A stretch of DNA of 64,000 nucleotides from Escherichia coli (GTDB lineage Bacteria > Pseudomonadota > Gammaproteobacteria > Enterobacterales > Enterobacteriaceae): the NCBI GenBank assembly GCA_902499925.1, contig GCA_902499925.1_4130.1. One strand, given 5' to 3'. This document shows, in pieces, positions 1 to 58,872 of this stretch (positions are counted from its first letter, which is position 1; the number at the start of each line of letters is the position of its first letter). The notes beneath the pieces were generated by a model that was given only the letters and a program-made list of their open reading frames with translations, ran no database searches and had not been told where the DNA came from. The position numbers and the translations under genes are program-made.

Positions 1-104
1 TAGCTACTTCCCGCATCAGTTCATCAAAGTTAGCCATTTTATTACTCCTTTTAGTGGGGGAGGATATCTCCCCCTATGCAAAACATTATACGCTTTATTC
101 AGTA

Positions 105-368
105 CTATGCAAGTACTTTTTTCATATAAAGATTATATTCTACACCGCCGTAACCTTCTACGATGATATGTTTTGCGTTATCACGTTTGCATATAGTAAA
201 GGCATCGTTGACGTGTTTTGCATTTTCCAGGGCAACATCGCCGATAGCGGCACATACTGAACTAATAACGATATTCCGCAAAGTACTGGTATCATTAGCG
301 GTCATAGTAGTTTGCAGTACTACGTTGTCGTATACGTGTGCATTGATAGTGATTTCGATAGTGTTCAT
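105..368 (-). CDS. hypothetical small early protein (87 aa)
   Basis: Track ORF 105..422 trimmed to Met19; AGGAGA RBS upstream of ATG; 5'-UTR hairpin (388-409) and promoter-like box upstream. Confidence 0.55.
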   Translation of the reverse strand: MNTIEITINAHVYDNVVLQTTMTANDTSTLRNIVISSVCAAIGDVALENAKHVNDAFTICKRDNAKHIIVEGYGGVEYNLYMKKVLA

Positions 369-455
369 GGTGTATCTCCTGGACTTGAGGGGAAACCATT
401 TCCCCCTCTCGATATAAAACATTATACGTTAATCTAACTACAATGCAAGTACTTT

Positions 456-647
456 TTAAATTTTATTTCCGATATAGTCCGGTCTATTCTTTTCGGTCAT
501 ACGCTTTGCTAATGATTGCATATGGCTTATTGCGTTTAATGTGTCTTCCTCCAGGGATGAATCAACATAATCAGGATCATTCTTCACCTTGCAATGATTA
601 TGATATCGTAGTACTGCCAGTACTTTTTTAACTTCTTCAACTGTCAT
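456..647 (-). CDS. hypothetical protein (63 aa)
   Basis: Minus ORF whose ATG overlaps the stop of 644..916 (ATGA), suggesting translational coupling. Confidence 0.5.
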   Translation of the reverse strand: MTVEEVKKVLAVLRYHNHCKVKNDPDYVDSSLEEDTLNAISHMQSLAKRMTEKNRPDYIGNKI

Positions 648-916
648 AATAAGTATTCCACTTCGTTAGCTTTCAGGTTAGTATCAATCATCAGTGGATT
701 TTTGTAGTTCACAAAACGAGTAGTTTTCTCGATAGCGAATCCCATATAATCCAGCTTACTAACAGTACATTCATTCTTAAAAACTTCTTTCGCTGCATCG
801 ATGGCTGATTGCATGGATAACCGCCCATCTAAGTTAATATTTCCAAATGATCCACCAGCAGAAGTAGGATTACCGTTCATATCTTTAATGATCATAGTAG
901 CGGAGTAGCTGGACAT
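644..916 (-). CDS. hypothetical protein (90 aa)
   Basis: Minus ORF; RBS AAAAGGAAAC before ATG; 5'-UTR hairpin 938-958 and promoter upstream. Confidence 0.6.
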   Translation of the reverse strand: MSSYSATMIIKDMNGNPTSAGGSFGNINLDGRLSMQSAIDAAKEVFKNECTVSKLDYMGFAIEKTTRFVNYKNPLMIDTNLKANEVEYLL

Positions 917-1000
917 AATTTTGTTTCCTTTTAGTATCGGGGAGAACTATTCTCCCCTTGATGTAAACTATTATACAGTACTAATATACTTTGTCAATAC

Positions 1001-1222
1001 TTAATTACGTTTAAAATGATATGTGCCTTTATCATCCTGTACGCCCCATACTGATTTACCATCAACACCAGTGAAACCGGATTGTAATTCAATATGGAAA
1101 CCATTATTATCAACTACAAAAACTTTTTTATTTTCATCCCGATAACATTGATATTCTGAATCAACATTAAAGGCCGCATCATTCAGAAGATTGGAAGCGT
1201 AAATGCAAGTCATTGTAGTCAT
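1001..1222 (-). CDS. hypothetical protein (73 aa)
   Basis: Track ORF trimmed to Met12; RBS TTAAGGAAT; hairpin 1243-1262; promoter TTGCAT-16-TATAAT at 1277-1304. Confidence 0.6.
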   Translation of the reverse strand: MTTMTCIYASNLLNDAAFNVDSEYQCYRDENKKVFVVDNNGFHIELQSGFTGVDGKSVWGVQDDKGTYHFKRN

Positions 1223-1397
1223 GATTTTATTCCTTAATATACCAGGGAGAACCATTTCCCCCTCTCGATATAAAACATTATACTTGATTCTAAGTACAAT
1301 GCAAGTACTTTTTTAAAAATAGTTTTCAGTACTGAATACTTATATAATATATACACTTCCGCACCCTATGGGTCAGTGAGTTATCTCTCAATGAATA

Positions 1398-1437
1398 TAT
1401 AATAGCAAAGGGACTGACCGGAGTCAATCCCTTTTTT
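1398..1437 (-). promoter_or_regulatory. terminator-promoter cassette (early-region variant)
   Basis: Minus strand reads GGGATTGAC-tccg-GTCAGTCCC then TTTGC-TATTAT. Confidence 0.5.
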
Positions 1438-1445
1438 AATCTTTT

Positions 1446-2030
1446 TTATCGTGTTACCTTACTTGCTTCTACATCACGCTTTTTATAGTACTGATTCCAG
1501 ATATTGCGGGTTAAACCGTAATCAAGTACTTTAATAAGTCCATTACGATCCTGGCCGATATTCTGTTTTCTGATATCTCTTATCGTTAGTGTTGATAATG
1601 TATCATCAACGTGTTGTAGTGCATCAGCAAAGCGGTGCTGGCGTTCGATTGCATTACGTTTAATATTGTACTTTAATTCGTTGCACGCGTTAACGTGCTT
1701 CACACTGCCTTTACTTGCAGTACTCAACCGATCCATAACGATAAACATATTATCAGGATCGCATAAATGCATATGCACCTTTGCAAAGTACTGTTTCAAC
1801 TGAGGGCGGTCATAGTCTAAAAAATTCCATACCTTACATTCAGTTTCATTTTGTTCTACACCCGCATCACAATTCGCGACCTTAATCACTAACCGATCAT
1901 TTAAAGCGAAAACTATACGGGAAGAACCAGCACCGATGATCTCCAGGCCAGCTAACCGACAAGCTGAAAGGATCTCTTTGTTGGTTTCCATTTCTGACAG
2001 TGTACGGATGAATTTAGTATAATTACGCAT
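1446..2030 (-). CDS. protein kinase-like mini-kinase (194 aa)
   Basis: Track ORF trimmed to Met20 with RBS AAGGAGA; Gly-rich loop IGAGSSRIV, VIKV lysine, catalytic-loop-like RDIRKQN and DYG 18 residues later; protein ends about 20 aa after DYG. Confidence 0.55.
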   Translation of the reverse strand: MRNYTKFIRTLSEMETNKEILSACRLAGLEIIGAGSSRIVFALNDRLVIKVANCDAGVEQNETECKVWNFLDYDRPQLKQYFAKVHMHLCDPDNMFIVMDRLSTASKGSVKHVNACNELKYNIKRNAIERQHRFADALQHVDDTLSTLTIRDIRKQNIGQDRNGLIKVLDYGLTRNIWNQYYKKRDVEASKVTR

Positions 2031-2061
2031 TGTTTTATCTCCTTGAGTTAATGAAACTATA

Positions 2062-2304
2062 TTACAGTACTTTACTATCAATGGCAACTACTTTTTTAAC
2101 ATTAACGGCGTGGATCACTTCCTTCGTGTTTTTAGTACTGAATACTTTCGCCGCACCATTCACGACCGTGATACGATAGCGACCATTAACATCAACCATA
2201 TTAATAAAGTCCGGCGTGCTGAATGGTGTTGTTTTACATTTCAGTACTGTTAACAGTTCCACCAGCGATGTAGTTTCTTTGATACGTTTTTCTAAAGTAA
2301 TCAT
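2062..2304 (-). CDS. hypothetical protein (80 aa)
   Basis: Trimmed to Met20; RBS GGGGGAAACAAA; promoter TTGACA-17-TACTAT upstream; upstream region duplicated at 2580-2640. Confidence 0.5.
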   Translation of the reverse strand: MITLEKRIKETTSLVELLTVLKCKTTPFSTPDFINMVDVNGRYRITVVNGAAKVFSTKNTKEVIHAVNVKKVVAIDSKVL

Positions 2305-2361
2305 TTTGTTTCCCCCGTGTTGGTATGTACATATAGTACTAAAACATTTGAGTACTGTCAA

Positions 2362-2580
2362 TTAGATAATATTATATTTCTTAAAATAAAATGCGTCCTG
2401 TGTTGGTTGATACTCGATACCGTTACCGTTATTGACTTCAACTAATAAACCTTTGTCAATAAGTTTTTTAATAGTACGATACCCTTGTTGAAAATTGGTA
2501 AAATGTGAATCATTACGAAAGGTATAACCGTGCTTAACTGCTTCATCAATAGTTTTCTTTTCGATTTTAGATAATTTCAT
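2362..2580 (-). CDS. hypothetical protein (72 aa)
   Basis: Trimmed to Met20; RBS GGGAGAAACAAA; upstream leader nearly identical to that of 2062..2304. Confidence 0.5.
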   Translation of the reverse strand: MKLSKIEKKTIDEAVKHGYTFRNDSHFTNFQQGYRTIKKLIDKGLLVEVNNGNGIEYQPTQDAFYFKKYNII

Positions 2581-2633
2581 TTTGTTTCTCCCGTGTTGGT
2601 ATATGTACATAGTACTAAAACAATTGAGTACTG

Positions 2634-2888
2634 TCAACGTGATATTAGTTTTATTTTCTTATTATATTGTTGGTGTTCATATAGGTTTATCTTTCCTGTG
2701 TTCTCTATTACTATTCTGTTGTTAGTGTCTACATCGATTACACGCAGTTTTCCGTTGCTTAACTTCCTTGGTAATAGGTTACCATTAATAAACTCATTAG
2801 CAAGCTGTACGGCCTTTGTGATGATTCTCTGAGGTGCTTTATAGTGTACCCGCAAGATATTATCTTTATATAGTTGAACCTTAATCAT
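2634..2888 (-). CDS. hypothetical protein (84 aa)
   Basis: Minus ORF; RBS AGGATAAACTAAA directly after terminator hairpin of upstream gene. Confidence 0.55.
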   Translation of the reverse strand: MIKVQLYKDNILRVHYKAPQRIITKAVQLANEFINGNLLPRKLSNGKLRVIDVDTNNRIVIENTGKINLYEHQQYNKKIKLISR

Positions 2889-2902
2889 TTTAGTTTATCC
2901 TA

Positions 2903-2928
2903 TAAAAAAGGCGGGAACTGATCCCGCC
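2903..2928 (-). terminator. intrinsic terminator (hairpin GGCGGGATCAGTTCCCGCC + U-run on minus RNA)
   Basis: GC-rich inverted repeat followed by T6 in the direction of minus-strand transcription, immediately 3' of 2951..3346. Confidence 0.55.
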
Positions 2929-2950
2929 GTGTTGTTAGTACTGCAAGTTA

Positions 2951-3346
2951 TTAGATAACCTGGCGGCGTTTACTGTATACTGTTACACGATTACCCTTAC
3001 GGTCGTGTCGGATCTCTTTCTGGTTGCGAATCAGTTCACTTGGACGCTTAAGGTTTGCCAGGTGATCCGCGTGAGTCCAAGCGGTATGGTTTACCTGTAC
3101 TTTGATATCAGAACCAGCGATAAACTCATCTTGTGCGTTAAGTACTGCCGCCAGATCTTCCGCTCGTTTTAGTTCTGCTGCTGTTAGTACTGGCTCAGGT
3201 GAATTCACAATATCAGAGATCTCTTTGAACTGTACGGCCCAACGTTGGCCTTTCGGTGCATCTTTGCCCATGTCTTTAAATGCTGCTCCTTCCTCGCGTG
3301 CAACAATACGGGCAGCTTCACGGGTAGCGTAGAATTTAGTAATCAT
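2951..3346 (-). CDS. hypothetical protein (131 aa); paralog of 15602..15865
   Basis: Minus ORF, start at Met4 with AGGA RBS; shares KFYATREAARI...FKDMG...RWA...DRKGNRVTVY with 15602..15865. Confidence 0.6.
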   Translation of the reverse strand: MITKFYATREAARIVAREEGAAFKDMGKDAPKGQRWAVQFKEISDIVNSPEPVLTAAELKRAEDLAAVLNAQDEFIAGSDIKVQVNHTAWTHADHLANLKRPSELIRNQKEIRHDRKGNRVTVYSKRRQVI

Positions 3347-3441
3347 GGTATACATCCTATTAGTTAAGTTAGTACTACAAGTTAGAGTCTATTATAAAGT
3401 ACTATCTGGGCAATGTCAAATAGTACTTTAAATGGATTCTA

Positions 3442-3765
3442 TTACATGTCTTTCTTACGTTTTACATCGTAGTAGCGAACTGTTATTTCTTTGTTAATCT
3501 CTTTTTCGATGTGGTGAATAACTTTTTCTTTCGGGTTGAAACCTATAACGGTTTCTTTAATGATCTCCAAACCAGTGTATTCGCCTTGTGTGCCGTAACC
3601 GTATGTAAAGGTTTCATGTCCCAGGTCTTCCCAGCGGTCGCCAATTAACGCAGACACGTAGCAAGAGTGGTAAGTATTGCCGTGTGAATCAGTCCACCGA
3701 TTAACTTTAATGTCAAAGGAGGTTACAATTTTCAATTCTACTTTCTGGGCAAGGATCATAGCCAT
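3442..3765 (-). CDS. hypothetical protein (107 aa); paralog of 10290..10613
   Basis: Minus ORF; shares RWTDSHGNTYHSC(Y/H)VS and FTYGY motifs with 10290..10613; promoter 3822-3850 and hairpin 3789-3807 upstream. Confidence 0.6.
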   Translation of the reverse strand: MAMILAQKVELKIVTSFDIKVNRWTDSHGNTYHSCYVSALIGDRWEDLGHETFTYGYGTQGEYTGLEIIKETVIGFNPKEKVIHHIEKEINKEITVRYYDVKRKKDM

Positions 3766-3788
3766 TTTTATTTCTCTCTTTTAGTTAG

Positions 3789-3807
3789 GAGGGGAACCAT
3801 TCCCCTC
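3789..3807 (-). promoter_or_regulatory. 5'-UTR stem-loop (family member)
   Basis: GAGGGGAA-loop-TTCCCCTC inverted repeat between promoter and RBS. Confidence 0.5.
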
Positions 3808-3821
3808 ACTTGATGTAAACT

Positions 3822-3850
3822 ATTATACAGTACTAAGATACTTTGTCAAT
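3822..3850 (-). promoter_or_regulatory. sigma70-like early promoter (TTGACA-16/17-TATAAT)
   Basis: Reverse complement reads TTGACAaagtatcttagtactgTATAAT. Confidence 0.6.
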
Positions 3851-3852
3851 AC

Positions 3853-4035
3853 TTATTTTTTGGAAAGTTTACGCATTAATTCTACGCTTTCTTGTGAACG
3901 TTTTGCTACCTGGCAAGCTGCATGGACAGTAAACATTTTTGTATAGTCTGACGCTTTGCCACCGAACCGAGCGGCACGTTCACGGGCACTTGGAACTAAT
4001 ACTATTTCTTTCTTGCAGATAGTGCACTTAGCCAT
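3853..4035 (-). CDS. small CxxC protein (60 aa)
   Basis: Trimmed to Met16 (MAKCTICKKE); RBS GAGAGAAATAAAA; hairpin upstream. Confidence 0.5.
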   Translation of the reverse strand: MAKCTICKKEIVLVPSARERAARFGGKASDYTKMFTVHAACQVAKRSQESVELMRKLSKK

Positions 4036-4123
4036 TTTTATTTCTCTCTCTTTGTTAGGAGGGGAACCGTTTCCCCTCACTCGATGTAAACTATTATACA
4101 GTACTAAGATACTTTGTCAATAC

Positions 4124-4399
4124 TTAATTATTGTAAATGTCGTGAATAGTGATAAAGTTTTTACGACCGTAAACCTGCAAATCAATATCAATGTAGTGCT
4201 TATCTAGTACATCCTCGACGCTTAACGCGGTGTCGTGGATATCTTCGTAGAATTGAGGATCTACAATCTTGCTTAAGTCATCCGGCGTTAACTTATCGTT
4301 AAGCCATTGAACCGCCTGGATATCTGCTTCACGTTTCCAGTCTTCCAGGTTAGTAGTCAGTACTTGTTCGATTTCGTTAGCTGTCAGTAGAATCCGCAT
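4124..4399 (-). CDS. hypothetical acidic protein (91 aa)
   Basis: Minus ORF; RBS AAGGAAACATAAAA. Confidence 0.6.
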   Translation of the reverse strand: MRILLTANEIEQVLTTNLEDWKREADIQAVQWLNDKLTPDDLSKIVDPQFYEDIHDTALSVEDVLDKHYIDIDLQVYGRKNFITIHDIYNN

Positions 4400-4665
4400 T
4401 TTTATGTTTCCTTATCAGTGGTTGATGTAAGTATTATACTCTTTTACTTTCTATTGTCAAACTATTTTATCAGGGGAGGTTTTCTTATGTCTTACTCCTG
4501 GACTACTTAACGGGGTTACTTGTTTCGTTCCCCGTCCTGATGTAAAACATTATACTTGATTCTAAGTACAATGCAAGTACTTTTTTAAAAATAGTTTTCA
4601 GTACTAGCCACCAGCATATAATAGATACATTTATGCACCCTGTGGGCTGATTTGTTTCTATGCGT

Positions 4666-4705
4666 ATATAATAGCAAAGGGACTGACCGGAGTCAATCCC
4701 TTTTT
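4666..4705 (-). promoter_or_regulatory. terminator-promoter cassette (early-region variant)
   Basis: Same element as 1398-1437. Confidence 0.5.
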
Positions 4706-4714
4706 CAATTATTT

Positions 4715-4864
4715 TTAAACTTCTTTCGGGTTGCGATAGGTGATAGCGTTCGGGTACATTTGTTTAATGTTATTCCATGCCTGGTTAACATTGTAACCAC
4801 TTGAGCGAATCAGTTGGTTACTACCGACACCTTGAAACACTACTTCGAATAAGAATTCTTTCAT
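4715..4864 (-). CDS. hypothetical small protein (49 aa)
   Basis: Untracked ORF MKEFLFEVVFQGVGSNQ...; ATG overlaps TGA of 4861..5034 (ATGA); followed by terminator cassette 4666-4705. Confidence 0.35.
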   Translation of the reverse strand: MKEFLFEVVFQGVGSNQLIRSSGYNVNQAWNNIKQMYPNAITYRNPKEV

Positions 4865-5034
4865 GCTTTCACCTCGCGATCTGCTTTACCTTTACGCCAG
4901 GACATTACTAATTGTTCGCGTTGCCATAAGTCGAGTGATACAAAAAGTTTTGCGGTATCACTTTTAGGATACTCGCCATTAGTACCTAACCGATAAAACA
5001 GATCTTTCAGTACTGATAATTCTACTTGGATCAT
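4861..5034 (-). CDS. hypothetical protein (57 aa)
   Basis: Track ORF 4861..5136 trimmed to Met35 (MIQVELS) with RBS AGAGGAAAG; hairpin upstream. Confidence 0.5.
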   Translation of the reverse strand: MIQVELSVLKDLFYRLGTNGEYPKSDTAKLFVSLDLWQREQLVMSWRKGKADREVKA

Positions 5035-8681: not shown

Positions 8682-8720
8682 TATAATAGCAAAATGGCTG
8701 ACCGGAGTCAACCACTTTTT
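8682..8720 (-). promoter_or_regulatory. terminator-promoter cassette (early-region variant)
   Basis: TGGTTGAC-tccg-GTCAGCCA then TATTAT. Confidence 0.5.
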
Positions 8721-45030: not shown

Positions 45031-46581
45031 TTAAACTATTTCGGTAGCTCCATACTTAAAGTAAATTTCCTTAATCATTTCAAGATTATGGATGCTTGTA
45101 GTTTCAGACCAACCATCCTCCATCAATTCACGTTCAATAATACCTTTCGTATTATGGATTTTAATATTTTCAGTTTGAAACAGTTTCTTACATTCAGTTT
45201 CGGCAGCAATACAATCAACTGGATTTTCAAATTTAAAAGAGCTAATACGTTTTATATCATAATAACATTTTAAGTTTTGTTCATATTCACGACGACCGAG
45301 GATTGTTTCAATTCCATATTTTAGCCCAATATATTCACCTGCATTACATATACCACTAATATATGCAATTTTTTGATTGCGATGTGCCTTACGAGGATTG
45401 CCACATCCACGCAAATGTATAGATGGTGTTTGCCAGAATTCATCACCACTTTCTGGATCAATAATACACACATTAGTACGGGCATCAATATACTCTACTT
45501 TACTGTAATCATATTGTTCATCGTGAATTTCGTTAGCCCTGTTGATAAATTCATCAATTGACATTTTATTTTTCAGGCCAGTTGATATATTAGCACGATC
45601 ATTATTACCACATCCCATCAAATGTGATGATGGTGTTTGCCAGAATTCACCATATACTGGATCTATAATACATACCTTAGTACTGTTGTTTACGTATACG
45701 ACCTTACTATAATCATACAGATTATCATGCACCAAATTGGCCTTCTCGATAAATTCATCAAGTGTTAAGCGTTTACTCTGTGCCGTTTTTTCAAAACCAC
45801 GGATTGGGTTTCCATGACCTTTCCAATGGTAGATTGGTTCTTGCCAGAATTCACCATATACTGGATCTACAATACATACCTTAGTCCATGCACCAGTATA
45901 CTCCACTTTACTGTAGTCATATAAATGACCATGTACTGCACGAGAACGTTCAATAAAAACTTCGTTGGTGAATGTTTTATTTACTGAAGTTCCTATACGC
46001 CCACGTTCCATGTTACCATGCTTGGATTTTAAATGGTCATATGGCGTTTGCCAGAATTCACCATACACTGGATCAATAATGCATACTGGAGTTTTACTAT
46101 TAACATATTCTACGTTTGAATAATCGAACGTATTTCCAAAACGTTCGATAGCTTCAGCTATAAATGTTTCAGTTGTTTTTGATTTAAGTTTTTTACCATT
46201 TTCAATGGCACGTTGTGGGCTACCTGCACCTTTTAAATGGGAGCTGGGTTCTTGCCAGAATTCACCATACACTGGATCAATAATACATACCTTAGTGCTA
46301 TTATTTTTATAAACAACTTTACTATAATCATAGAGGTTGTTATGAACTTTTTCTGCTCGTTCTATAAACGTTTGGGTGGTTAATTTGCCAACACCTGAAC
46401 GATATGGATTCCCCTGACCGCGAATGTGATGTGACGGAGTTTGCCAGAATTCACCATACACCGGATCAATAATGCATACTGGTTCTTTAGCTTTTACATA
46501 CACTGCTTTTTCGTAATTATAGAGATCACCATGTACATTTCGTGCAGCAATTAAAAAAGTTTCTTGGTCGGTAACACGCAT
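45031..46581 (-). CDS. tandem-repeat protein (516 aa): six ~67-aa repeats plus C-terminal GIY-YIG-like region
   Basis: Repeat unit TxxFIERAxxVHxNLYDYSKVxY...KVCIIDPVYGEFWQxPxxHLxGxGNPxR six times; C-terminal AYISGICNAGEYIGLKYG...GRREYE...FKFE resembles GIY-YIG spacing; RBS AGGGATAAAGAAA. Confidence 0.65.
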   Translation of the reverse strand: MRVTDQETFLIAARNVHGDLYNYEKAVYVKAKEPVCIIDPVYGEFWQTPSHHIRGQGNPYRSGVGKLTTQTFIERAEKVHNNLYDYSKVVYKNNSTKVCIIDPVYGEFWQEPSSHLKGAGSPQRAIENGKKLKSKTTETFIAEAIERFGNTFDYSNVEYVNSKTPVCIIDPVYGEFWQTPYDHLKSKHGNMERGRIGTSVNKTFTNEVFIERSRAVHGHLYDYSKVEYTGAWTKVCIVDPVYGEFWQEPIYHWKGHGNPIRGFEKTAQSKRLTLDEFIEKANLVHDNLYDYSKVVYVNNSTKVCIIDPVYGEFWQTPSSHLMGCGNNDRANISTGLKNKMSIDEFINRANEIHDEQYDYSKVEYIDARTNVCIIDPESGDEFWQTPSIHLRGCGNPRKAHRNQKIAYISGICNAGEYIGLKYGIETILGRREYEQNLKCYYDIKRISSFKFENPVDCIAAETECKKLFQTENIKIHNTKGIIERELMEDGWSETTSIHNLEMIKEIYFKYGATEIV

Positions 46582-46614: not shown

Positions 46615-46650
46615 AGCTATAATAGCAAAAGGGCTGACCGAAGTCAACTC
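46615..46650 (-). promoter_or_regulatory. terminator-promoter cassette (degenerate copy)
   Basis: Hairpin GAGTTGAC-ttcg-GTCAGCCC with one mismatch, then TATTAT. Confidence 0.4.
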
Positions 46651-46872: not shown

Positions 46873-47310
46873 TTACTTAATCATCTCGGTATAGTACTCA
46901 GGTAACTCAACATCAGTAAATTTATACCACTTAGGCTTCATTTGGAGCTTCTCAATCAAGCGTTCACGAGACATTTTAATCTCTGAATCAGATGGTACAT
47001 AGTCCTGGCAAAACTCCGCAGGGAAGCCGCTAATGTCGTTTAATTCAATGTTTTGAATCTTCATACCACGACGCAAACATTCGTTAACAATTTCAATATG
47101 ACGCTTCTGTAAGTACAATAACTTGTTGTAGAAGAATGTTACATGACCTGAACCTAACAGGTAAGTACTGTTAATTTTGAAATCACGTACACGCTTACGT
47201 GCTTGAACATGTTTTTGTACAGCACCAAATACACGTGGGAGTTCACGATATTCAGCCATCAGATGTTGGTCAGCAAGTTCTTTAACGTGTACTAAGTTAA
47301 TGCGTGTCAT
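46873..47310 (-). CDS. denV: endonuclease V, pyrimidine-dimer DNA glycosylase/AP lyase (145 aa)
   Basis: Colinear with T4 DenV as I recall it: [31 protein letters not shown]...KRVRDFKI...GHVTFFY.KL; RBS GAGGATGAATAC. Confidence 0.85.
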
Positions 47311-47338: not shown

Positions 47339-47376
47339 ATTATAACAAAAAGGGCTGACCGAAGTCAACCCTTTGT
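47339..47376 (-). promoter_or_regulatory. terminator-promoter cassette
   Basis: Minus strand reads GGGTTGAC-ttcg-GTCAGCCC, T-run, TGtTATAAT (extended -10). Confidence 0.55.
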
Positions 47377-47377
47377 T

Positions 47378-47800
47378 TTAATCATCGCCAAAATCATAAT
47401 GGTTCTCGTAAAAACAATCCTGACAGTAGTCACCATCATCACCGAATGCAGTTTCATTACGATATACTTCACTTTCTGGTATTTGTTTACCACAATCATC
47501 ACATGTACATAGTTTCATAAATTCCTCATTAATCAACAATGCACCCAACTTCACAATCTCATACCCATCCAGATAGCCATAGGAACACTCAGGTGTTTCA
47601 TAAGTTGAACCATCATGGATACCTTGGCATTGGCTTTTGGAACGTTCAAGCAATCGTTGCAGTACTGATACGTCATCAAGAACGTAATACAAGTTAGCAT
47701 ATGGGTCCGTCACAATACAGTACTTAAACATGCCAAATGTATCAATCGATTTTTCAACCTTAGCAAATTGTTTCTTTTCTTTATTATACAATGCGTACAT
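47378..47800 (-). CDS. hypothetical protein with C-terminal Cys cluster (141 aa)
   Basis: Track ORF 47378..47866 trimmed to MYALYNKEKK, which starts 1 nt after the stop of 47802..48173; CTCDDCGKQ...YCQDCF. Confidence 0.5.
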   Translation of the reverse strand: MYALYNKEKKQFAKVEKSIDTFGMFKYCIVTDPYANLYYVLDDVSVLQRLLERSKSQCQGIHDGSTYETPECSYGYLDGYEIVKLGALLINEEFMKLCTCDDCGKQIPESEVYRNETAFGDDGDYCQDCFYENHYDFGDD

Positions 47801-47801
47801 A

Positions 47802-48173
47802 TTAATCTCCATAATCAAGTTTAACCAACTTACCACACAGATACCCAAAGTTTTCTGGCTTCGCATCTGAATAGAAGAAGTCAGTACTTAACTCTGAATT
47901 CAATGCTAAAGCACACAACTCCACCCAAAATAAACCCCTATGTTGTACTGGCTTACAACGTTTCTGTACAGTTACTAGTCCAGTACATGATGACCACAAA
48001 GTAGGACAGATACCAGTATCACTACGCTTGGAGTACTGCATCCACGAACGTTCATTGAGGTTAGCTATCATCCCTGTTAAGAATAGCTTCCAACTTTTAA
48101 AGGTTGGAATCTTGATAGCATATTCCCCAATGAGTATGACAGTTCGTGTTGCACCTTTCAAATCTATATTCAT
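47802..48173 (-). CDS. protein kinase-like mini-protein (123 aa)
   Basis: AIK lysine motif, catalytic-loop-like DAKPEN and DYG 16 residues later; C-terminus ends at DYGD, matching 1446..2030. Confidence 0.5.
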   Translation of the reverse strand: MNIDLKGATRTVILIGEYAIKIPTFKSWKLFLTGMIANLNERSWMQYSKRSDTGICPTLWSSCTGLVTVQKRCKPVQHRGLFWVELCALALNSELSTDFFYSDAKPENFGYLCGKLVKLDYGD

Positions 48174-49243: not shown

Positions 49244-49281
49244 TTGATAAACATTATACAGTACTGAATGAGTTTGTCAAC

Positions 49282-49928: not shown

Positions 49929-50297
49929 CTATCGATTTGGCATTTTATCTCGTAATTTCACAAGATAATCAATCACGGTACATCCTGAAATAAAGGTAAT
50001 ATAAGTACTGAAAAATCCTACCAGAATAAAGGCAACAAGCGTACTCCCATTTGGTTCTTCAGCTTTAATACCAATGATACCATCAGATGCAGTGAAAAAT
50101 GTAGACATAAACGTTAGACAGATGTACATCACTAATAAGAATTCATGTTCTAATGACGGATAAAAACGATCAAAAAGTTTATAAAATTTAAAGTACAGTA
50201 GGAGTATACCAACAAAGGCATAGAAAGTAAACAGTGTTGTTATGATATATGATATTAAATTTAAATTATACATCTCAACGCTCCGGTAGATTATCAC
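49929..50297 (-). CDS. small multi-pass membrane protein, family member (122 aa)
   Basis: Same family as 41332-43771; C-terminus ...LRDKMPNR. Confidence 0.6.
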   Translation of the reverse strand: MIIYRSVEMYNLNLISYIITTLFTFYAFVGILLLYFKFYKLFDRFYPSLEHEFLLVMYICLTFMSTFFTASDGIIGIKAEEPNGSTLVAFILVGFFSTYITFISGCTVIDYLVKLRDKMPNR

Positions 50298-50616
50298 GTA
50301 ATGTTTTGATTCGATTATACAATTTCATTGCTACATTTCCAAATAAACCAAAACCCATTACTAAAATGTATGCGATGATCATAGTAATAATTACAATAGT
50401 ACCTAGACTGTAATGTACTGCACTGATACCCATTATTGTTTCTACAATGATGTGAGCAACAGAAATCACCAAAAGTACTACTACAATTGGATGATTTGGA
50501 TACATTCGGTTAAACAATGTTTTGTACTTAAAGAAGTACAGTACTCCACCAAATAAGAAGTACACAATGTAGATTGATGCAACGGCATAAGCAAACGCAT
50601 TAGTGTAAAAAATCAT
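50275..50616 (-). CDS. small multi-pass membrane protein, family member (113 aa)
   Basis: Track start is TTG; ATG at Met3 has RBS AAGGATTGATA; C-terminus ...LRDNLPER. Confidence 0.6.
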   Translation of the reverse strand: MIFYTNAFAYAVASIYIVYFLFGGVLYFFKYKTLFNRMYPNHPIVVVLLVISVAHIIVETIMGISAVHYSLGTIVIITMIIAYILVMGFGLFGNVAMKLYNRIKTLRDNLPER

Positions 50617-50625
50617 TATCAATCC

Positions 50626-50964
50626 TTACTTTTCAGGGATTTTATTACGCCACTCATCGATGCGATGAAGCAGTTTAAAGAGCAAAAATATCGGAACTGT
50701 AGCTATCATAGTAGCAATTGTTAGTAATGTCAACATCGATACGAGATTTAATTCGTCCGTACTATATCCACATACCAGTACTTCAATTATCCCCCACGTA
50801 CATGCACTGAACATCAAAAATGAAATTGGTGCATCGTAGTATATGCGTTGATACAAGGTCGTGTATCGGAAGAATGCAATAATGTAACAAAACATGTAAT
50901 ACACCCAAATTAACGATACTACATAAAATGATACCTTATTAATTAATTCAAAATGTTGTTCCAT
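50626..50964 (-). CDS. small multi-pass membrane protein, family member (112 aa)
   Basis: RBS AGGGGTAAAAA; C-terminus ...WRNKIPEK. Confidence 0.6.
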   Translation of the reverse strand: MEQHFELINKVSFYVVSLIWVYYMFCYIIAFFRYTTLYQRIYYDAPISFLMFSACTWGIIEVLVCGYSTDELNLVSMLTLLTIATMIATVPIFLLFKLLHRIDEWRNKIPEK

Positions 50965-51260: not shown

Positions 51261-51674
51261 TTATGCTGGTACACAATTTTTTATAATGAATACACGTTTC
51301 ATGAATGAACTTTCATATACGTACTTCAGTTTACCATTTTCACGCATACGATGAAACACATCTTTACCGCTAGTACTCCATGTTGAACCAGTCTCTGCAT
51401 CAACATTGTTCATTACACCAGATGTTACGTTCACCCCGTACTTGAAGCTAAAGGTACTACCTTCTTCTACCAGAGGGATTGGTGTACTACGTTCATGTTC
51501 CAGTACAAGTTTACTGCCGATGATGTTGTACGAAGTTAGCTTGCATTTTAAAACACCCATCTCTTGTGCAGTTGGGTAATTCTTCTCAAACAAATCAGAT
51601 ACTTCATTTGCATAACAAACTGAACTAATCATAAGAAGTAATGAACTGATAGAACGGAAAATAACTTTTAACAT
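51261..51674 (-). CDS. secreted protein with signal peptide (137 aa)
   Basis: N-terminus MLKVIFRSISSLLLMISSVCYA; RBS GGAGGCAAAC; cassette upstream. Confidence 0.6.
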   Translation of the reverse strand: MLKVIFRSISSLLLMISSVCYANEVSDLFEKNYPTAQEMGVLKCKLTSYNIIGSKLVLEHERSTPIPLVEEGSTFSFKYGVNVTSGVMNNVDAETGSTWSTSGKDVFHRMRENGKLKYVYESSFMKRVFIIKNCVPA

Positions 51675-51700
51675 GTTTGCCTCCAGTAGTTGATGAAATG

Positions 51701-51740
51701 ATTATAGCAAAAAGGGCCGACCGAAGTCAACCCTTTTCTT
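51701..51740 (-). promoter_or_regulatory. terminator-promoter cassette
   Basis: GGGTTGAC-ttcg-GTCGGCCC, T-run, TATAAT. Confidence 0.55.
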
Positions 51741-52115
51741 TTATATTTTACATGTCATGTCTGGTTTTGGCTTTTCATTCTTTGGCTTTTCAAATGGATT
51801 TGGCTTAGGGGACTTTTTATCTTTATCATCTTTAGCTTTCTTTTTGTTTTCTTTTTTATCCGATTTGTCAGCTTTGTCTTTCTTATCTTTTGAATCTTTG
51901 TCAGCTTTAGATTGTGGTTCCTCACATACAGCAGCTTTTGGCTCTGGCATATCACATGAGTTATCCACAGGTTTAATGAACTCTTTACAGTTGTAGAAGT
52001 ATAAACTTTCATTGGTAGTAAGATTGTGGAATCTAAAGGTATTTTCACCATTAGTATATACTTTCTTAGTACTCTCAATATCATTACACATTGCAACTGT
52101 GTCACCGGAATTCAT
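51741..52115 (-). CDS. protein with Cys-containing N-domain and Lys/Asp-rich tail (124 aa)
   Basis: RBS AGGTATCGAGC; overlaps stop of upstream gene; preferred over alternative-frame ORF 51755..52105. Confidence 0.5.
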   Translation of the reverse strand: MNSGDTVAMCNDIESTKKVYTNGENTFRFHNLTTNESLYFYNCKEFIKPVDNSCDMPEPKAAVCEEPQSKADKDSKDKKDKADKSDKKENKKKAKDDKDKKSPKPNPFEKPKNEKPKPDMTCKI

Positions 52116-52379: not shown

Positions 52380-52417
52380 CAATATTTACAAAAAAAGGTT
52401 GACCGAAGTCAACCTTT
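52380..52417 (-). promoter_or_regulatory. terminator-promoter cassette
   Basis: Perfect hairpin AAGGTTGAC-cgaa-GTCAACCTT, T-run, TAAATA. Confidence 0.5.
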
Positions 52418-54465: not shown

Positions 54466-54498
54466 TATATATAAAGGTTGACCGAAGTCAACCCTATT
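54465..54498 (-). promoter_or_regulatory. terminator-promoter cassette
   Basis: GGGTTGAC-ttcg-GTCAACC, T-run, TATATAAT. Confidence 0.5.
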
Positions 54499-55241: not shown

Positions 55242-55280
55242 ATTATACGACAAAGGGCTGACCGAAGTCAACCCCTTTTA
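55242..55280 (-). promoter_or_regulatory. terminator-promoter cassette
   Basis: GGGGTTGAC-ttcg-GTCAGCCC, T-run, TATAAT. Confidence 0.55.
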
Positions 55281-58835: not shown

Positions 58836-58872
58836 ATTATAACAAAAAAGGTTGACCGAAGTCAACCTTTAT
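58836..58872 (-). promoter_or_regulatory. terminator-promoter cassette
   Basis: Perfect hairpin AGGTTGAC-ttcg-GTCAACCT, T-run, TGtTATAAT. Confidence 0.55.

Follow-up and report, generated by a model that had tools for sequence, protein, structure and literature searches.

Two minimal kinase-like genes of an Asteriusvirus-like Escherichia coli phage and their wider phage family

Described kinases with reduced domains

The gp0.7 kinase of phage T7 (T7K; PHROG 2828/15752) is phage-encoded and lies in the early, leading-end region transcribed by host RNA polymerase. It has an N-terminal helical extension, and its kinase domain ends soon past the equivalent of DFG. A recent account places this domain at residues 1–242, with a DFG-like DPV at 213–215, and describes an experimentally active, hyper-promiscuous enzyme that disarms bacterial host defenses via mass phosphorylation; a T7 phage with the kinase only still yields about 31% of phosphopeptides (PMC13645617). 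The two genes that we describe here, gene A and gene B, share general traits of this kind with T7K. Nevertheless, T7K belongs to a separate family. Neither A nor B matched PHROG 2828 or 15752 at E ≤ 1, whereas T7K and its 224-aa relative gp144 of phage Sharanji (D-P at 204–205) matched PHROG 2828, 15752, and 18305 but not 4301, and hhalign of gene A against the T7K/gp144 pair gave a probability of only 14.7%. Residues 22–170 of gene A do align in register with 47–204 of gp144, with a common A-G-L-x-x-(L/I)-G-x-G stretch. In A and B, D-Y-G stands where T7K has D-P-V, and D-x-(K)-x-x-N where it has D-x-H-x-x-N; an invariant Gly-loop Arg is present, the shut-off/DNA-binding domain is absent, and the T7K kinase domain is about twice as large as gene B. 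No T7K-like kinase corresponding to gp144 was found in the window (the whole 64,000-nt stretch of DNA that was analyzed), where the Sharanji gp144–145 cassette is replaced.

Several type III effectors (OspG, NleH1/2, HopBF1, and SteC) have a minimal fold without Hanks subdomains VIII–XI (PMC12756638; PMC9950578). The truncation point of OspG, NleH, and HopBF1 is of the same class as that of A and B. Unlike A and B, these effectors are secreted into eukaryotic cells and have eukaryotic targets, and our genes scored no better against OspG, NleH, HopBF1, and SteC than against ordinary kinases, with no specific sequence relationship. The solved effector chains span 153–176 residues and retain C-terminal helices after DFG; the gene B chain, by contrast, goes no further than DFG+1. 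With its 123 aa, it is shorter than all kinase chains among the structural matches listed, the shortest being a SteC fragment of 153 residues.

Hanks-type Ser/Thr kinases (PF00069; MKK4/7, STK24, TTK, and PknB/Stk1) are the best sequence and structure matches of A and B, with the Gly-loop, the VAIK Lys, the αC Glu, the HRD-type D-x-K-x-x-N, and DFG all in register. A and B differ from them in having no activation segment, APE, αF Asp, or αG–αI, in carrying an Arg at the third Gly of the G-x-G-x-x-G loop, and, for gene B, in a catalytic Asp with neither His nor Arg before it (Y-S-D). A likeness to Bud32 and Kdo kinases, suggested in an earlier note on this DNA, gained no support from family models. 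Pfam/NCBIfam models of RIO1, Kdo, and Bud32 kinases matched neither A nor B at E ≤ 10, nor any of the family members searched. Solved Bud32, RIO, and Kdo (KdkA/WaaP) chains comprise 208–269 residues and, unlike A and B, keep a helical C-lobe past the metal-binding Asp; their catalytic-loop motifs also differ. No sequence relationship was detected to the archaeal RNA kinase ArkI/Ark1, which is 50–90 residues longer than gene B, and an RNA-related gene context of family B is only sporadic.

Genes, homology, and genomic context

The window comes from a jumbo phage of E. coli that resembles Asteriusvirus (121Q/G17/Sharanji). The two ORFs, each on the minus strand, are genuine genes and are conserved as such in dozens of phages. 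Gene A (1446..2030) encodes 194 aa from an ATG at 2030, with AAGGAG 8 nt upstream as ribosome-binding site, and its product is 100% identical to Sharanji WNN14351.1. It consists of an N-terminal helical extension of ~30 aa, kinase subdomains I–VII, and a 22-aa tail. Gene B (47802..48173) encodes a minimal kinase core of 123 aa with subdomains I–VII only. A sequence check found both ORFs and their motifs where the earlier note had placed them: I32-G-A-G-S-S-R-I-V40, V48-I-K50-V, R151-D152-I-R-K-Q-N157, and D170-Y-G172 in gene A, and A19-I-K21, D103-A-K-P-E-N108, and D120-Y-G122 in gene B. The distance from D152 to D170 is 18 residues, as had been said, but D103 lies 17 rather than 16 residues from D120. 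Past DYG, the gene A chain has 22 residues after G172, and the gene B chain has one after G122.

Both products matched PHROG 4301 ("unknown function"), gene A at E = 1e-41 (profile positions 13–184 of 225) and gene B at E = 9e-43 (positions 40–167 of 225). Alignment-based comparison shows that they are distant homologues of each other. An hhalign comparison of the gene A alignment (A3) with a 158-sequence family B alignment gave a probability of 98.3% (E = 1.7e-14) with all motifs in register, and the family B HMM picked up gene A among the ORFs of the window at E = 5e-8. This homology became clear only after the alignments were deepened: a shallow first hhalign gave only 67%, and direct BLASTP of A against B was insignificant (E = 0.04). 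It is absent from the earlier note. No third family member was found in the window.

Pfam PF00069 (Pkinase) scored gene A at 17.8 bits, below its gathering threshold of 31.7, and gene B had no match in Pfam, NCBIfam, or PADLOC; sub-threshold Pkinase matches were obtained for 8 of the 13 family A members searched and for none of 15 in family B. Searched against PDB sequences, the gene A family profile gave 103 matches at E < 0.01, and all 60 of those listed are kinases. The best were MKK4 (E = 2.5e-6) and STK24 (E = 7e-5), with a match that runs from the Gly-loop through DFG (28–184 against 10–160 in the STK24 alignment). Family B profiles searched against the same database returned nothing with 15 sequences and no significant match with 121 (E = 0.18–0.6; TTK). 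PADLOC models of the PD-T4-6 defense kinase matched gene A in the catalytic-loop region only (E = 2.4e-4, 18.9 bits), consistent with generic kinase similarity, and did not match gene B. The Muenster GenBank note on a gene A orthologue records an HHpred match of 99.9% to 6J5T_M.

Gene A already carries a putative-kinase label in a few GenBank records and in one paper; our literature search yielded a single sentence on it, in which an orthologue is termed a kinase with unknown function. Records of gene B nearly always read "hypothetical", no Pfam family covers it, and the same search found no described family of phage mini-kinases. The label "virion structural protein" near a homologue in Shewanella phage SXP01 belongs to neighboring CDSs.

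Directly 3′ of gene A lies a terminator-like hairpin (1407..1434, minus strand), a motif that occurs 10 times on the minus strand. It overlaps the −35 element of the next candidate promoter, a sigma-70-like TTGACT-17-TATTAT located downstream of gene A (1427–1399, minus strand) and recognized by consensus match. Gene A orthologues sit within the 20–21.5 kb direct terminal repeat. A perfect sigma-70 consensus, TTGACA-16-TATAAT (49253..49280, minus strand), is the putative promoter of a five-gene unit from 49205 to 47378 that includes gene B; a terminator-like hairpin (47349..47374, minus strand) closes the unit and overlaps the putative promoter of the DenV gene. The ATG of a gene for a 140-aa Cys-rich protein (47378..47800, minus strand) follows the gene B stop by 1 nt, with GGAGAT in the last codons of gene B as its Shine-Dalgarno sequence. 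This protein has no Pfam match and is absent near eight other family B loci, and so is not a conserved partner.

Gene B lies two genes from DenV here, and the family B gene of phage NP1 adjoins DenV. Elsewhere, the family B gene overlaps rnlB (JS10), lies between DNA ligase and DNA polymerase (SPJ41), or stands just upstream of the tRNA cluster (G4507). T4 has no such gene; relative to it, G4507 carries its copy as a simple insertion between trna.3 and trna.2. An all-vs-all comparison of ORFs at nine loci found no recurrent neighbor save DenV in NP1, and we therefore rejected both a C-lobe encoded in trans and a conserved partner gene.

Native truncation and catalytic residues

The AF2 model of gene B is a compact monomeric domain (pLDDT 90, pTM 0.80) with the order β1–3, αC, β4–5, αE, catalytic loop, β7–8, and DYG, and kinases are its top Foldseek matches. 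The gene A model is of low confidence (pLDDT 50) and still matches mainly kinase-like folds, with APH(2'') at the top. Kinase-like fold matches by Z score included APH(2'') at 7.9, viomycin kinase at 7.2, the RNA kinases Ark1 at 7.1 and TkArkI at 6.7, and ethanolamine kinase at 6.6. The core of the superfamily is present: a five-stranded N-lobe sheet with αC, followed by αE, the catalytic loop, a β hairpin, and the metal-binding loop. Our results thus support a protein-kinase-like superfamily fold for both proteins, in which the N-lobe, the catalytic loop, and a DFG-type Mg site are all intact. The earlier note had placed both genes in this superfamily, and profile, structure-prediction, and fold-search evidence now backs it; the kinase N-lobe and catalytic loop, which it had made the touchstone for predicted structures, are present in the models.

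Most of a canonical C-lobe is missing, as the same note had proposed: everything after Hanks subdomain VII is absent from both proteins. Subdomains VIII–XI (the activation segment/APE, αF with its conserved Asp, and αG–αI) are likewise absent from both families, and the truncation is native to each. Family B comprises at least 1,212 clusters at E ≤ 1e-3 (639 at E ≤ 1e-10), formed at 50% identity so that representatives are ≤50% identical to one another, with a median length of 123 aa. Among the 74 representatives with the strict catalytic-loop and DxG pattern, 64 stop 0–3 residues past DxG. This length distribution rules out that gene B is a pseudogene piece of a longer kinase. The few longer members contain no recognizable extra domain, and the apparent 1,073-aa member P0055 is a tandem-repeat artifact. 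Family B occurs in T4-like, Felix-O1-like, N4-like, jumbo, and siphoviral phages and in lambdoid prophages. The family is very large and uncharacterized, and its 123-aa type lies below the size of every kinase structure among our matches. In canonical kinases, the catalytic machinery is anchored by the αF helix; gene B is wholly without αF, which makes its stand-alone activity uncertain.

The residues conserved across both families are the kinase catalytic set: Gly-loop, β3 Lys, αC Glu, D-x-K-x-x-N, and D-Y-G (all coordinates below are on the minus strand). Nine columns are invariant among 34 family A sequences: S36, R38, V40, K50, Q60, E64, G159, D170, and G172. The first three belong to the Gly-rich loop G33-A-G-S-S-R-I-V40 (1911..1934), which aligns with G-x-T-R-x-V of family B; K50 (V-I-K-V; 1881..1883) is the β3 lysine, and E64 (Q-N-E-T-E; 1839..1841) the αC glutamate. 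The catalytic loop D152-I-R-K-Q-N157 (1560..1577) aligns to HRDIKPSN of MKK4, and D170-Y-G172 (1515..1523) to DFG of MKK4 and Stk1. D152 is found in at least 90% of sequences, no Lys is conserved at +2 from it, and some sequences have Q or H instead of N157. The gene A loop therefore matches the Ser/Thr-type D-x-K-x-x-N only in part, because its basic residue is shifted.

Conservation in family B was scored over 158 representatives. The β3 lysine K21 (A-I-K; 48111..48113) and the αC glutamate E41 (48051..48053), which lies inside a predicted helix at 28–43, are present in every one. In the Gly-loop equivalent G7-A-T-R-T-V12 (48138..48155), G7 and R10 each occur in 156, T9 in 133 (plus Ser in 16), and V12 in 148. 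The C-terminal D120-Y-G122 (47808..47816; D in 156, Y in 142, G in 138) aligns to DFG of TTK, and the catalytic loop D103-A-K-P-E-N108 (47850..47867) to HSDLKPAN of the same kinase. This loop is of the Ser/Thr type D-x-K-x-x-N, with K105 in 135 representatives. Position 103 is acidic in 156 (D in 101, E in 55), and position 108 is N or S in 153 (106 and 47). In about one-third of the family, E-x-K-x-x-S replaces D-x-K-x-x-N, with E covarying with S; we know of no characterized kinase with such a loop. The earlier note was silent on the αC glutamate and on the invariant Gly-loop Arg (R38 in A, R10 in B).

A six-frame scan of the window yields 265 stop-to-stop segments of ≥60 aa, of which only those of gene A and gene B carry the catalytic-loop pattern followed by D-[FYLWM]-G. 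Because only two segments do so, and their motif residues are invariant family columns, the pattern is beyond chance.

Proposed function and alternatives

We give about an even chance to the proposal that PHROG 4301, the one phage family to which A and B belong, comprises minimal kinase domains of the Hanks type that are active and that, produced early, have host or phage proteins as phosphorylation substrates. Such a domain would consist of the N-lobe, helix αE, the catalytic loop, and the Mg-binding D-Y-G, where the gene B chain ends. ATP would be seated between the β1–β3 sheet and the β7–β8 hairpin. The paired invariant Lys and Glu (K50 and E64 in A, K21 and E41 in B) would hold its α and β phosphates, and Mg2+ would be bound by the Asn of the catalytic loop together with the Asp of DYG. 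D152 of gene A and D103 of gene B, the Asp residues of the loop, would serve as catalytic base, and the family-specific Gly-loop Arg may touch the γ-phosphate or the substrate. Because activation segment, P+1 pocket, and αF–αI platform are absent, an open active site with low intrinsic substrate selectivity is expected. We infer kinase activity and an early host-directed role from the consensus-matched host-type sigma-70 promoters ahead of both genes, the terminal-repeat location of gene A orthologues, and the T7 precedent. The promoters and the repeat location make both proteins probable early products and probable kinases of host or phage proteins, in the manner of T7 gp0.7.

A bolder form of this proposal concerns the ~120-residue family B protein, and we advance it only tentatively, at somewhat under even chances. 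The protein would be a free-standing active kinase that ends at DFG without an αF scaffold; spread by horizontal transfer, it would act as a promiscuous host-takeover or anti-defense enzyme or be completed in trans by a host protein, and the covarying E...S would constitute a second catalytic configuration, not seen before.

The substrate might instead not be a protein. A and B could be kinases of a small molecule, a nucleotide or second messenger, an RNA or tRNA 2′-OH or 5′-OH, or an envelope sugar, with the minimal core providing the ATP chemistry and the Gly-loop Arg helping to bind an anionic substrate. Small-molecule and RNA kinases do appear among the fold matches, with Z scores on a par with those of protein kinases, APH(2'') tops those of the gene A model, family B lies near nucleic-acid genes in several phages (JS10, G4507, NP1, SPJ41, and the phage studied here), and a platform for protein substrates (activation segment or P+1 loop) is missing. 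However, gene B has a D-x-K-P-E-N loop of the Ser/Thr protein kinase type, and the kinases matched best by sequence (MKK4, STK24, TTK, and PknB-type) are of that type too. Small-molecule kinases of kinase-like fold usually have no Lys at +2. Moreover, the neighborhoods are not conserved over nine loci, save for DenV in one other lineage, and the G4507 copy is a plain insertion relative to T4. On balance, we consider a non-protein substrate unlikely.

We judge it more improbable still that A and B are non-catalytic, pseudokinase-like nucleotide binders that block or scaffold a host protein or sequester a nucleotide. Many small phage early proteins are stoichiometric inhibitors. The loss of the entire αF–αI scaffold would fit such a role, as would E/S at the catalytic-base and Mg-Asn positions in ~30% of family B and the variable catalytic-loop positions of family A, and NleH binds RPS3 without needing kinase activity (PMC12756638). 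Yet Lys, Glu, and the DFG Asp hardly vary across more than 150 clusters ≤50% identical, and an acidic residue (D or E) occupies the base position in 156 of 158 representatives. As a rule, pseudokinases have lost one of Lys, Glu, and DFG Asp. The covariation of E with S also suggests a coupled active site that is maintained, not decay.

Ranked directly after this, and no less improbable, is obligate activation by a partner, in the way that E2~ubiquitin activates OspG: a host protein, another protein of the phage, or a second copy in a homodimer would provide the missing C-lobe surface in trans. The architecture is that of OspG and NleH, without subdomains VIII–XI; the fold implies that, with gene B stopping at DYG, surfaces normally buried on αF would be exposed; and gene B is translationally coupled here to the Cys-rich protein. 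Against this, no neighbor is conserved across phage lineages, so the partner, if any, would have to come from the host or be a second copy of the protein, and the gene B monomer is modeled confidently as a compact domain (pTM 0.80). In the available part of its description, the kinase-only truncation of T7K (1–242) is active in infected cells with no partner described.

Chance resemblance of the motifs in non-coding or unrelated ORFs, which the weak Pfam and BLASTP results might suggest, has a negligible probability and is already refuted by retention of the genes in dozens of phages, the more than 1,200 family B clusters, the confident kinase-fold model with catalytic motifs in register, and the restriction of the pattern to two ORFs of the window.

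The family is practical to study, as its members are small single-gene proteins. Tractable carriers of family B include Tequatrovirus G4507, phage PaulHMueller (isolated on E. coli K-12), and Salmonella prophages, and the two members per Asteriusvirus phage, joined in some by a T7K-like kinase, make a direct comparison possible. If inactive, A and B would represent a widespread class of phage pseudokinases or nucleotide binders that is still new. If active, they would mark the lower size limit of the protein kinase fold, and phosphotransfer would need none of the αF-anchored C-lobe, the organizing core of textbook accounts. A very large enzyme family, unannotated and with no Pfam model, would then join the phage toolkit for host manipulation.

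Gene calls, motifs and homology

The DNA is about 96% identical to the Asteriusvirus E. coli jumbo phages Ecwhy_1, G17, Sharanji and 121Q. Gene A (1446-2030, minus strand, 194 aa) begins with an ATG at 2030, with AAGGAG 8 nt before the start, and this 585-nt coding sequence is the one annotated in every relative. Gene B (47802-48173, minus strand) encodes 123 aa. An earlier note had read both as mini protein-kinase-like genes, and all of the motifs it listed for gene A were located: IGAGSSRIV (residues 32-40), VIKV (48-51), RDIRKQN (151-157) and DYG (170-172), the DFG equivalent, after which 22 residues remain. Those listed for gene B are likewise in place (AIK, 19-21; DAKPEN, 103-108; DYG, 120-122, with 1 residue remaining), except that D103 and D120 lie 17 residues apart and not 16. 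When the window was scanned in six frames (265 segments, each 60 aa or longer), a catalytic-loop pattern followed by D-x-G turned up in these two genes only.

BLASTP of gene A against gene B gave no significant match. Both match PHROG 4301, of 'unknown function' (gene A, E 1e-41; gene B, E 9e-43), on whose proteins we found no experimental work in the literature. With enlarged alignments (34 sequences in family A, 158 representatives in family B), hhalign paired residues 31-172 of A with 3-122 of B (98.3% probability, E 1.7e-14). All motifs line up: in A/B order, G-S-S-R-x-V/G-x-T-R-x-V, V-I-K/A-I-K, Q-N-x-x-E/A-N-x-x-E and V-M-E-R/V-M-x-R, and also the catalytic loop and L-D-Y-G. Genes A and B are homologues. 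Compared with B, gene A is longer by an N-terminal helical extension of ~30 residues, an insertion of ~20 residues before alphaE and the 22-residue tail. The remotest family A members (P0195 and P0196) stop no more than a few residues past DYG, like family B.

The AlphaFold2 model of gene B, a confident one (pLDDT 90.1, pTM 0.80), follows the kinase order: beta1-beta3, alphaC (28-43), beta4-beta5, alphaE (79-92), catalytic loop, beta7-beta8 and DYG. Kinase N-lobe elements and a catalytic loop are thus both present, and the best Foldseek matches are Lpg2603, TTK, WbdD, CDK2 and S6K. From its sequences alone, family B is almost undetectable as a kinase: it has no match in Pfam, NCBIfam or PADLOC, and a 121-sequence profile reached E 0.18-0.6 at best against the PDB, with TTK accounting for 22 of 23 weak matches, aligned at HSDLKPAN...DFG. 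Gene A scored 17.8 bits against Pfam Pkinase, under the 31.7 threshold, and sub-threshold Pkinase matches occurred in 8 of 13 family A members. All 60 weak PDB matches listed for the single gene A sequence are kinases. The 34-sequence family A profile matched MKK4 (E 2.5e-6) and STK24 (E 7e-5), its positions 28-184 aligning with kinase residues 10-160. For the orthologue in Klebsiella phage Muenster, a GenBank note gives HHpred 99.9% to 6J5T_M. The kinase-like reading is therefore supported by AlphaFold2 and Foldseek for gene B and by the PDB profile matches for gene A. That A and B are homologues with a kinase fold, and that their active site is intact, is in our view almost certain.

Active-site conservation and truncation

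Residue counts for family B were taken over 158 representatives, one per 50%-identity cluster. K21 and E41 occur in all 158, G7, R10 and D120 in 156, G110 in 155, V12 in 148, Y121 in 142, G122 in 138 and K105 in 135. Position 103 is D in 101 and E in 55, and position 108 is N in 106 and S in 47. D pairs with N (D-K-N, n = 81) and E with S (E-K-S, n = 45), so that E-x-K-x-x-S replaces D-x-K-x-x-N in 45 of the 158 clusters (about 30%; for example, P0056, P0057 and P0060). The E and S changes covary almost perfectly, with K21, E41 and D120 staying invariant; as read from these counts, the replacement is covariation and not decay. We know of no characterised kinase with an E-x-K-x-x-S active-site configuration. 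Adenine-pocket positions are conserved as well (V12; A19, with A in 113 and V in 44; V117). Among the 34 family A sequences, S36, R38, V40, K50, Q60, E64, G159, D170 and G172 are invariant, D152 is nearly so, and position 157 is mostly N, with Q or H in some. In both families, Arg occupies the position of the third Gly in the canonical kinase G-x-G-x-x-G.

At E <=1e-3 the family B profile matched 1,212 clusters among 1.84 billion representatives, and at E <=1e-10 it matched 639. Median length is 123 aa, and the C-terminus falls 0-3 residues past D-x-G in 64 of the 74 members with the strict catalytic-loop and DxG pattern. No recognisable added domain was found in the rare longer members. The truncation is native.

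Genomic surroundings and earlier annotation

Family A occurs only in RaK2-like jumbo phages (Asteriusvirus, Alcyoneusvirus, Munch-like phages, Erwinia Hallingskeid, Yersinia fHe-Yen9-04, Pectobacterium CBB and one Xanthomonas phage). The gene A orthologues lie within the annotated direct terminal repeats of vB_Ec-M-J (1-21525) and Muenster (1-20030). In the window, gene A is surrounded by many small genes on its own strand, and five predicted promoters with a perfect TTGACA-16/17-TATAAT sequence occur within 5 kb. Perfect 12/12 sigma-70 consensus sites (16-18 nt spacer) occur on the minus strand, 5' of many small genes, at 970-997, 3391-3419, 3822-3849, 4093-4120, 4433-4460, 44641-44670 and 49253-49280. 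Positions 1-5000 hold 30 promoter-like sites against 17.1 expected. This richness is consistent with an early region dependent on host RNA polymerase.

Directly 3' of gene A, a terminator-like hairpin is fused to the next promoter (1434-1407, minus strand). The motif TTGACTYCGGTCAG occurs 10 times in the window against 0.03 expected, always on the minus strand (1414-1427, 4683-4696, 8698-8711, 46634-46647, 47355-47368, 51717-51730, 52399-52412, 54478-54491, 55258-55271 and 58852-58865). It is the core of an AAAGGG...CCCTTT hairpin, and its TTGACT is also the -35 element of a TATTAT/TATAAT promoter lying downstream; the element looks like a composite terminator/promoter cassette separating early transcription units. 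This terminal-repeat-type early region also encodes, three genes upstream of gene A, a protein with a ParE-like toxin domain (2634-2888, minus strand, 84 aa; PF24732, E 6.4e-11), and the Muenster record has a 'putative YafQ-like ribonuclease toxin' in the corresponding neighbourhood. Relatives add a GNAT acetyltransferase and a DksA-like protein near gene A.

The Sharanji paper (PMC11895373) describes WNN14351.1, with which gene A shares 100% identity, as 'another protein kinase ... which function is unknown'. Orthologues are labelled protein kinase in a minority of GenBank records (Turkey3, Turkey5, fEgEco12, ph0011, K64-1, Munch, Muenster and SE_PL). Annotators had thus already guessed at the type of which gene A is a new member. 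Nearly every record lists gene B as 'hypothetical', apart from those of the Erwinia phages pEa_SNUABM_5 and AH04. The jumbo-phage kinases treated in the T7 gp0.7 kinase (T7K) paper had been identified with a PHROG 2828 profile (PMC13645617). Sharanji gp144, a T7K-like kinase, matches the T7K profiles PHROG 15752 and 2828, and no gp144 homologue was found in the window. Where Sharanji has its gp144-gp145 cassette (OR545507.1 66135-67536; L004 4136-5536), the window has unrelated ORFs instead (51264-51981), one of 124 aa that is rich in Lys and Asp and one for a 137-aa protein whose N-terminus is hydrophobic. The third kinase of some Asteriusviruses is therefore missing from the window.

Five genes, of which gene B is the fourth, form a unit that runs from a perfect sigma-70 consensus promoter (49280-49253) to a hairpin (47374-47349), and a gene for a 140-aa Cys-rich protein starts 1 nt from the gene B stop codon. 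Just upstream of the unit, three small membrane proteins (112-122 aa; 49929-50297, 50275-50622 and 50626-50964, minus strand) are encoded in tandem; they are paralogues with a common motif (for example, KYKTLFNRMYPNHP, KFYKLFDRFYPSLEH and RYTTLYQRIYYDAP). A 516-aa protein (45031-46581, minus strand) has six tandem ~85-aa repeats (...LYDYSKV.Y....TKVCIIDPVYGEFWQTP..H...), in a region annotated 'endonuclease' or 'HNH endonuclease' in relatives.

The 118 phage records with a family B gene cover very diverse phages: T4-like JS10 and G4507, Felixounavirus SPJ41, Schitoviridae Moonfish, Vequintavirinae A7_1, jumbo phages of Erwinia, Aeromonas, Ralstonia, Klebsiella and Shewanella, Pseudomonas siphophage NP1 and a Rhizobium phage. 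Temperate phages carry it too, since a homologue (P0026, 45% identical) occurs in Salmonella lambdoid prophages (L016 and L017, 6001-6372), in a moron slot between an Rz-type lysis gene and the Nu1 terminase. In Tequatrovirus G4507 (L021 2501-2881), the gene is cleanly inserted between homologues of T4 trna.3 and trna.2, beside the tRNA cluster, and T4 itself (L024) has no family B gene. In Dhakavirus JS10, rnlB (RNA ligase 2) starts 1 nt after the end of the homologue. A DenV pyrimidine-dimer DNA glycosylase lies two genes downstream of gene B (46873-47310, minus strand; PF03013, E 2.5e-15); in NP1, which is unrelated to the window phage, the family B gene directly adjoins DenV, followed by a Zn-finger protein (L007 2264-2812). 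This linkage was absent from seven other lineages checked. No recurrent neighbour was found across the compared loci except DenV in NP1, and family B therefore moves as a single unit, without a genomically linked partner.

Proposed catalytic competence and substrates

The best-supported reading is that both proteins would be catalytically competent minimal kinases, because the full set of ATP, Mg and catalytic residues is under strong purifying selection in a very diverse family, because the coupled D/N to E/S change fits a maintained active site, and because proteins of the same architecture (T7K, NleH and OspG) are proven kinases. T7K and OspG/NleH-type minimal kinases are a better analogy than the Bud32/Kdo-kinase folds of the earlier note. 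According to the T7K paper, the T7K kinase domain comprises residues 1-242 with the DFG equivalent at 213-215, and T7 with the kinase domain only still makes about 31% of phosphopeptides (PMC13645617). NleH and OspG lack subdomains VIII-XI (PMC12756638).

Protein substrates are favoured because the D-x-K-P-E-N loop is of Ser/Thr type and the best matches are Hanks kinases. Kinases of a non-protein substrate are an unlikely alternative, suggested by small-molecule and RNA kinases scoring as well structurally and by occasional proximity to rnlB, tRNA, DenV and ligase genes. A non-catalytic nucleotide binder, set against the selection on the whole residue set, is more doubtful. Least probable, by a little, is a kinase obligately completed by a partner, given a family that moves without a linked one.

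For competent minimal kinases, substrate selectivity would be low unless a partner supplies it, because activation segment and P+1 pocket are lacking. From promoter type and terminal-repeat position, we infer an early, host-directed role; that A and B are active protein kinases with host or phage proteins as their early targets is, in our judgement, about as likely as not. Gene B stands for a large unannotated family that takes the kinase fold down to about 120 residues, ending at DFG.
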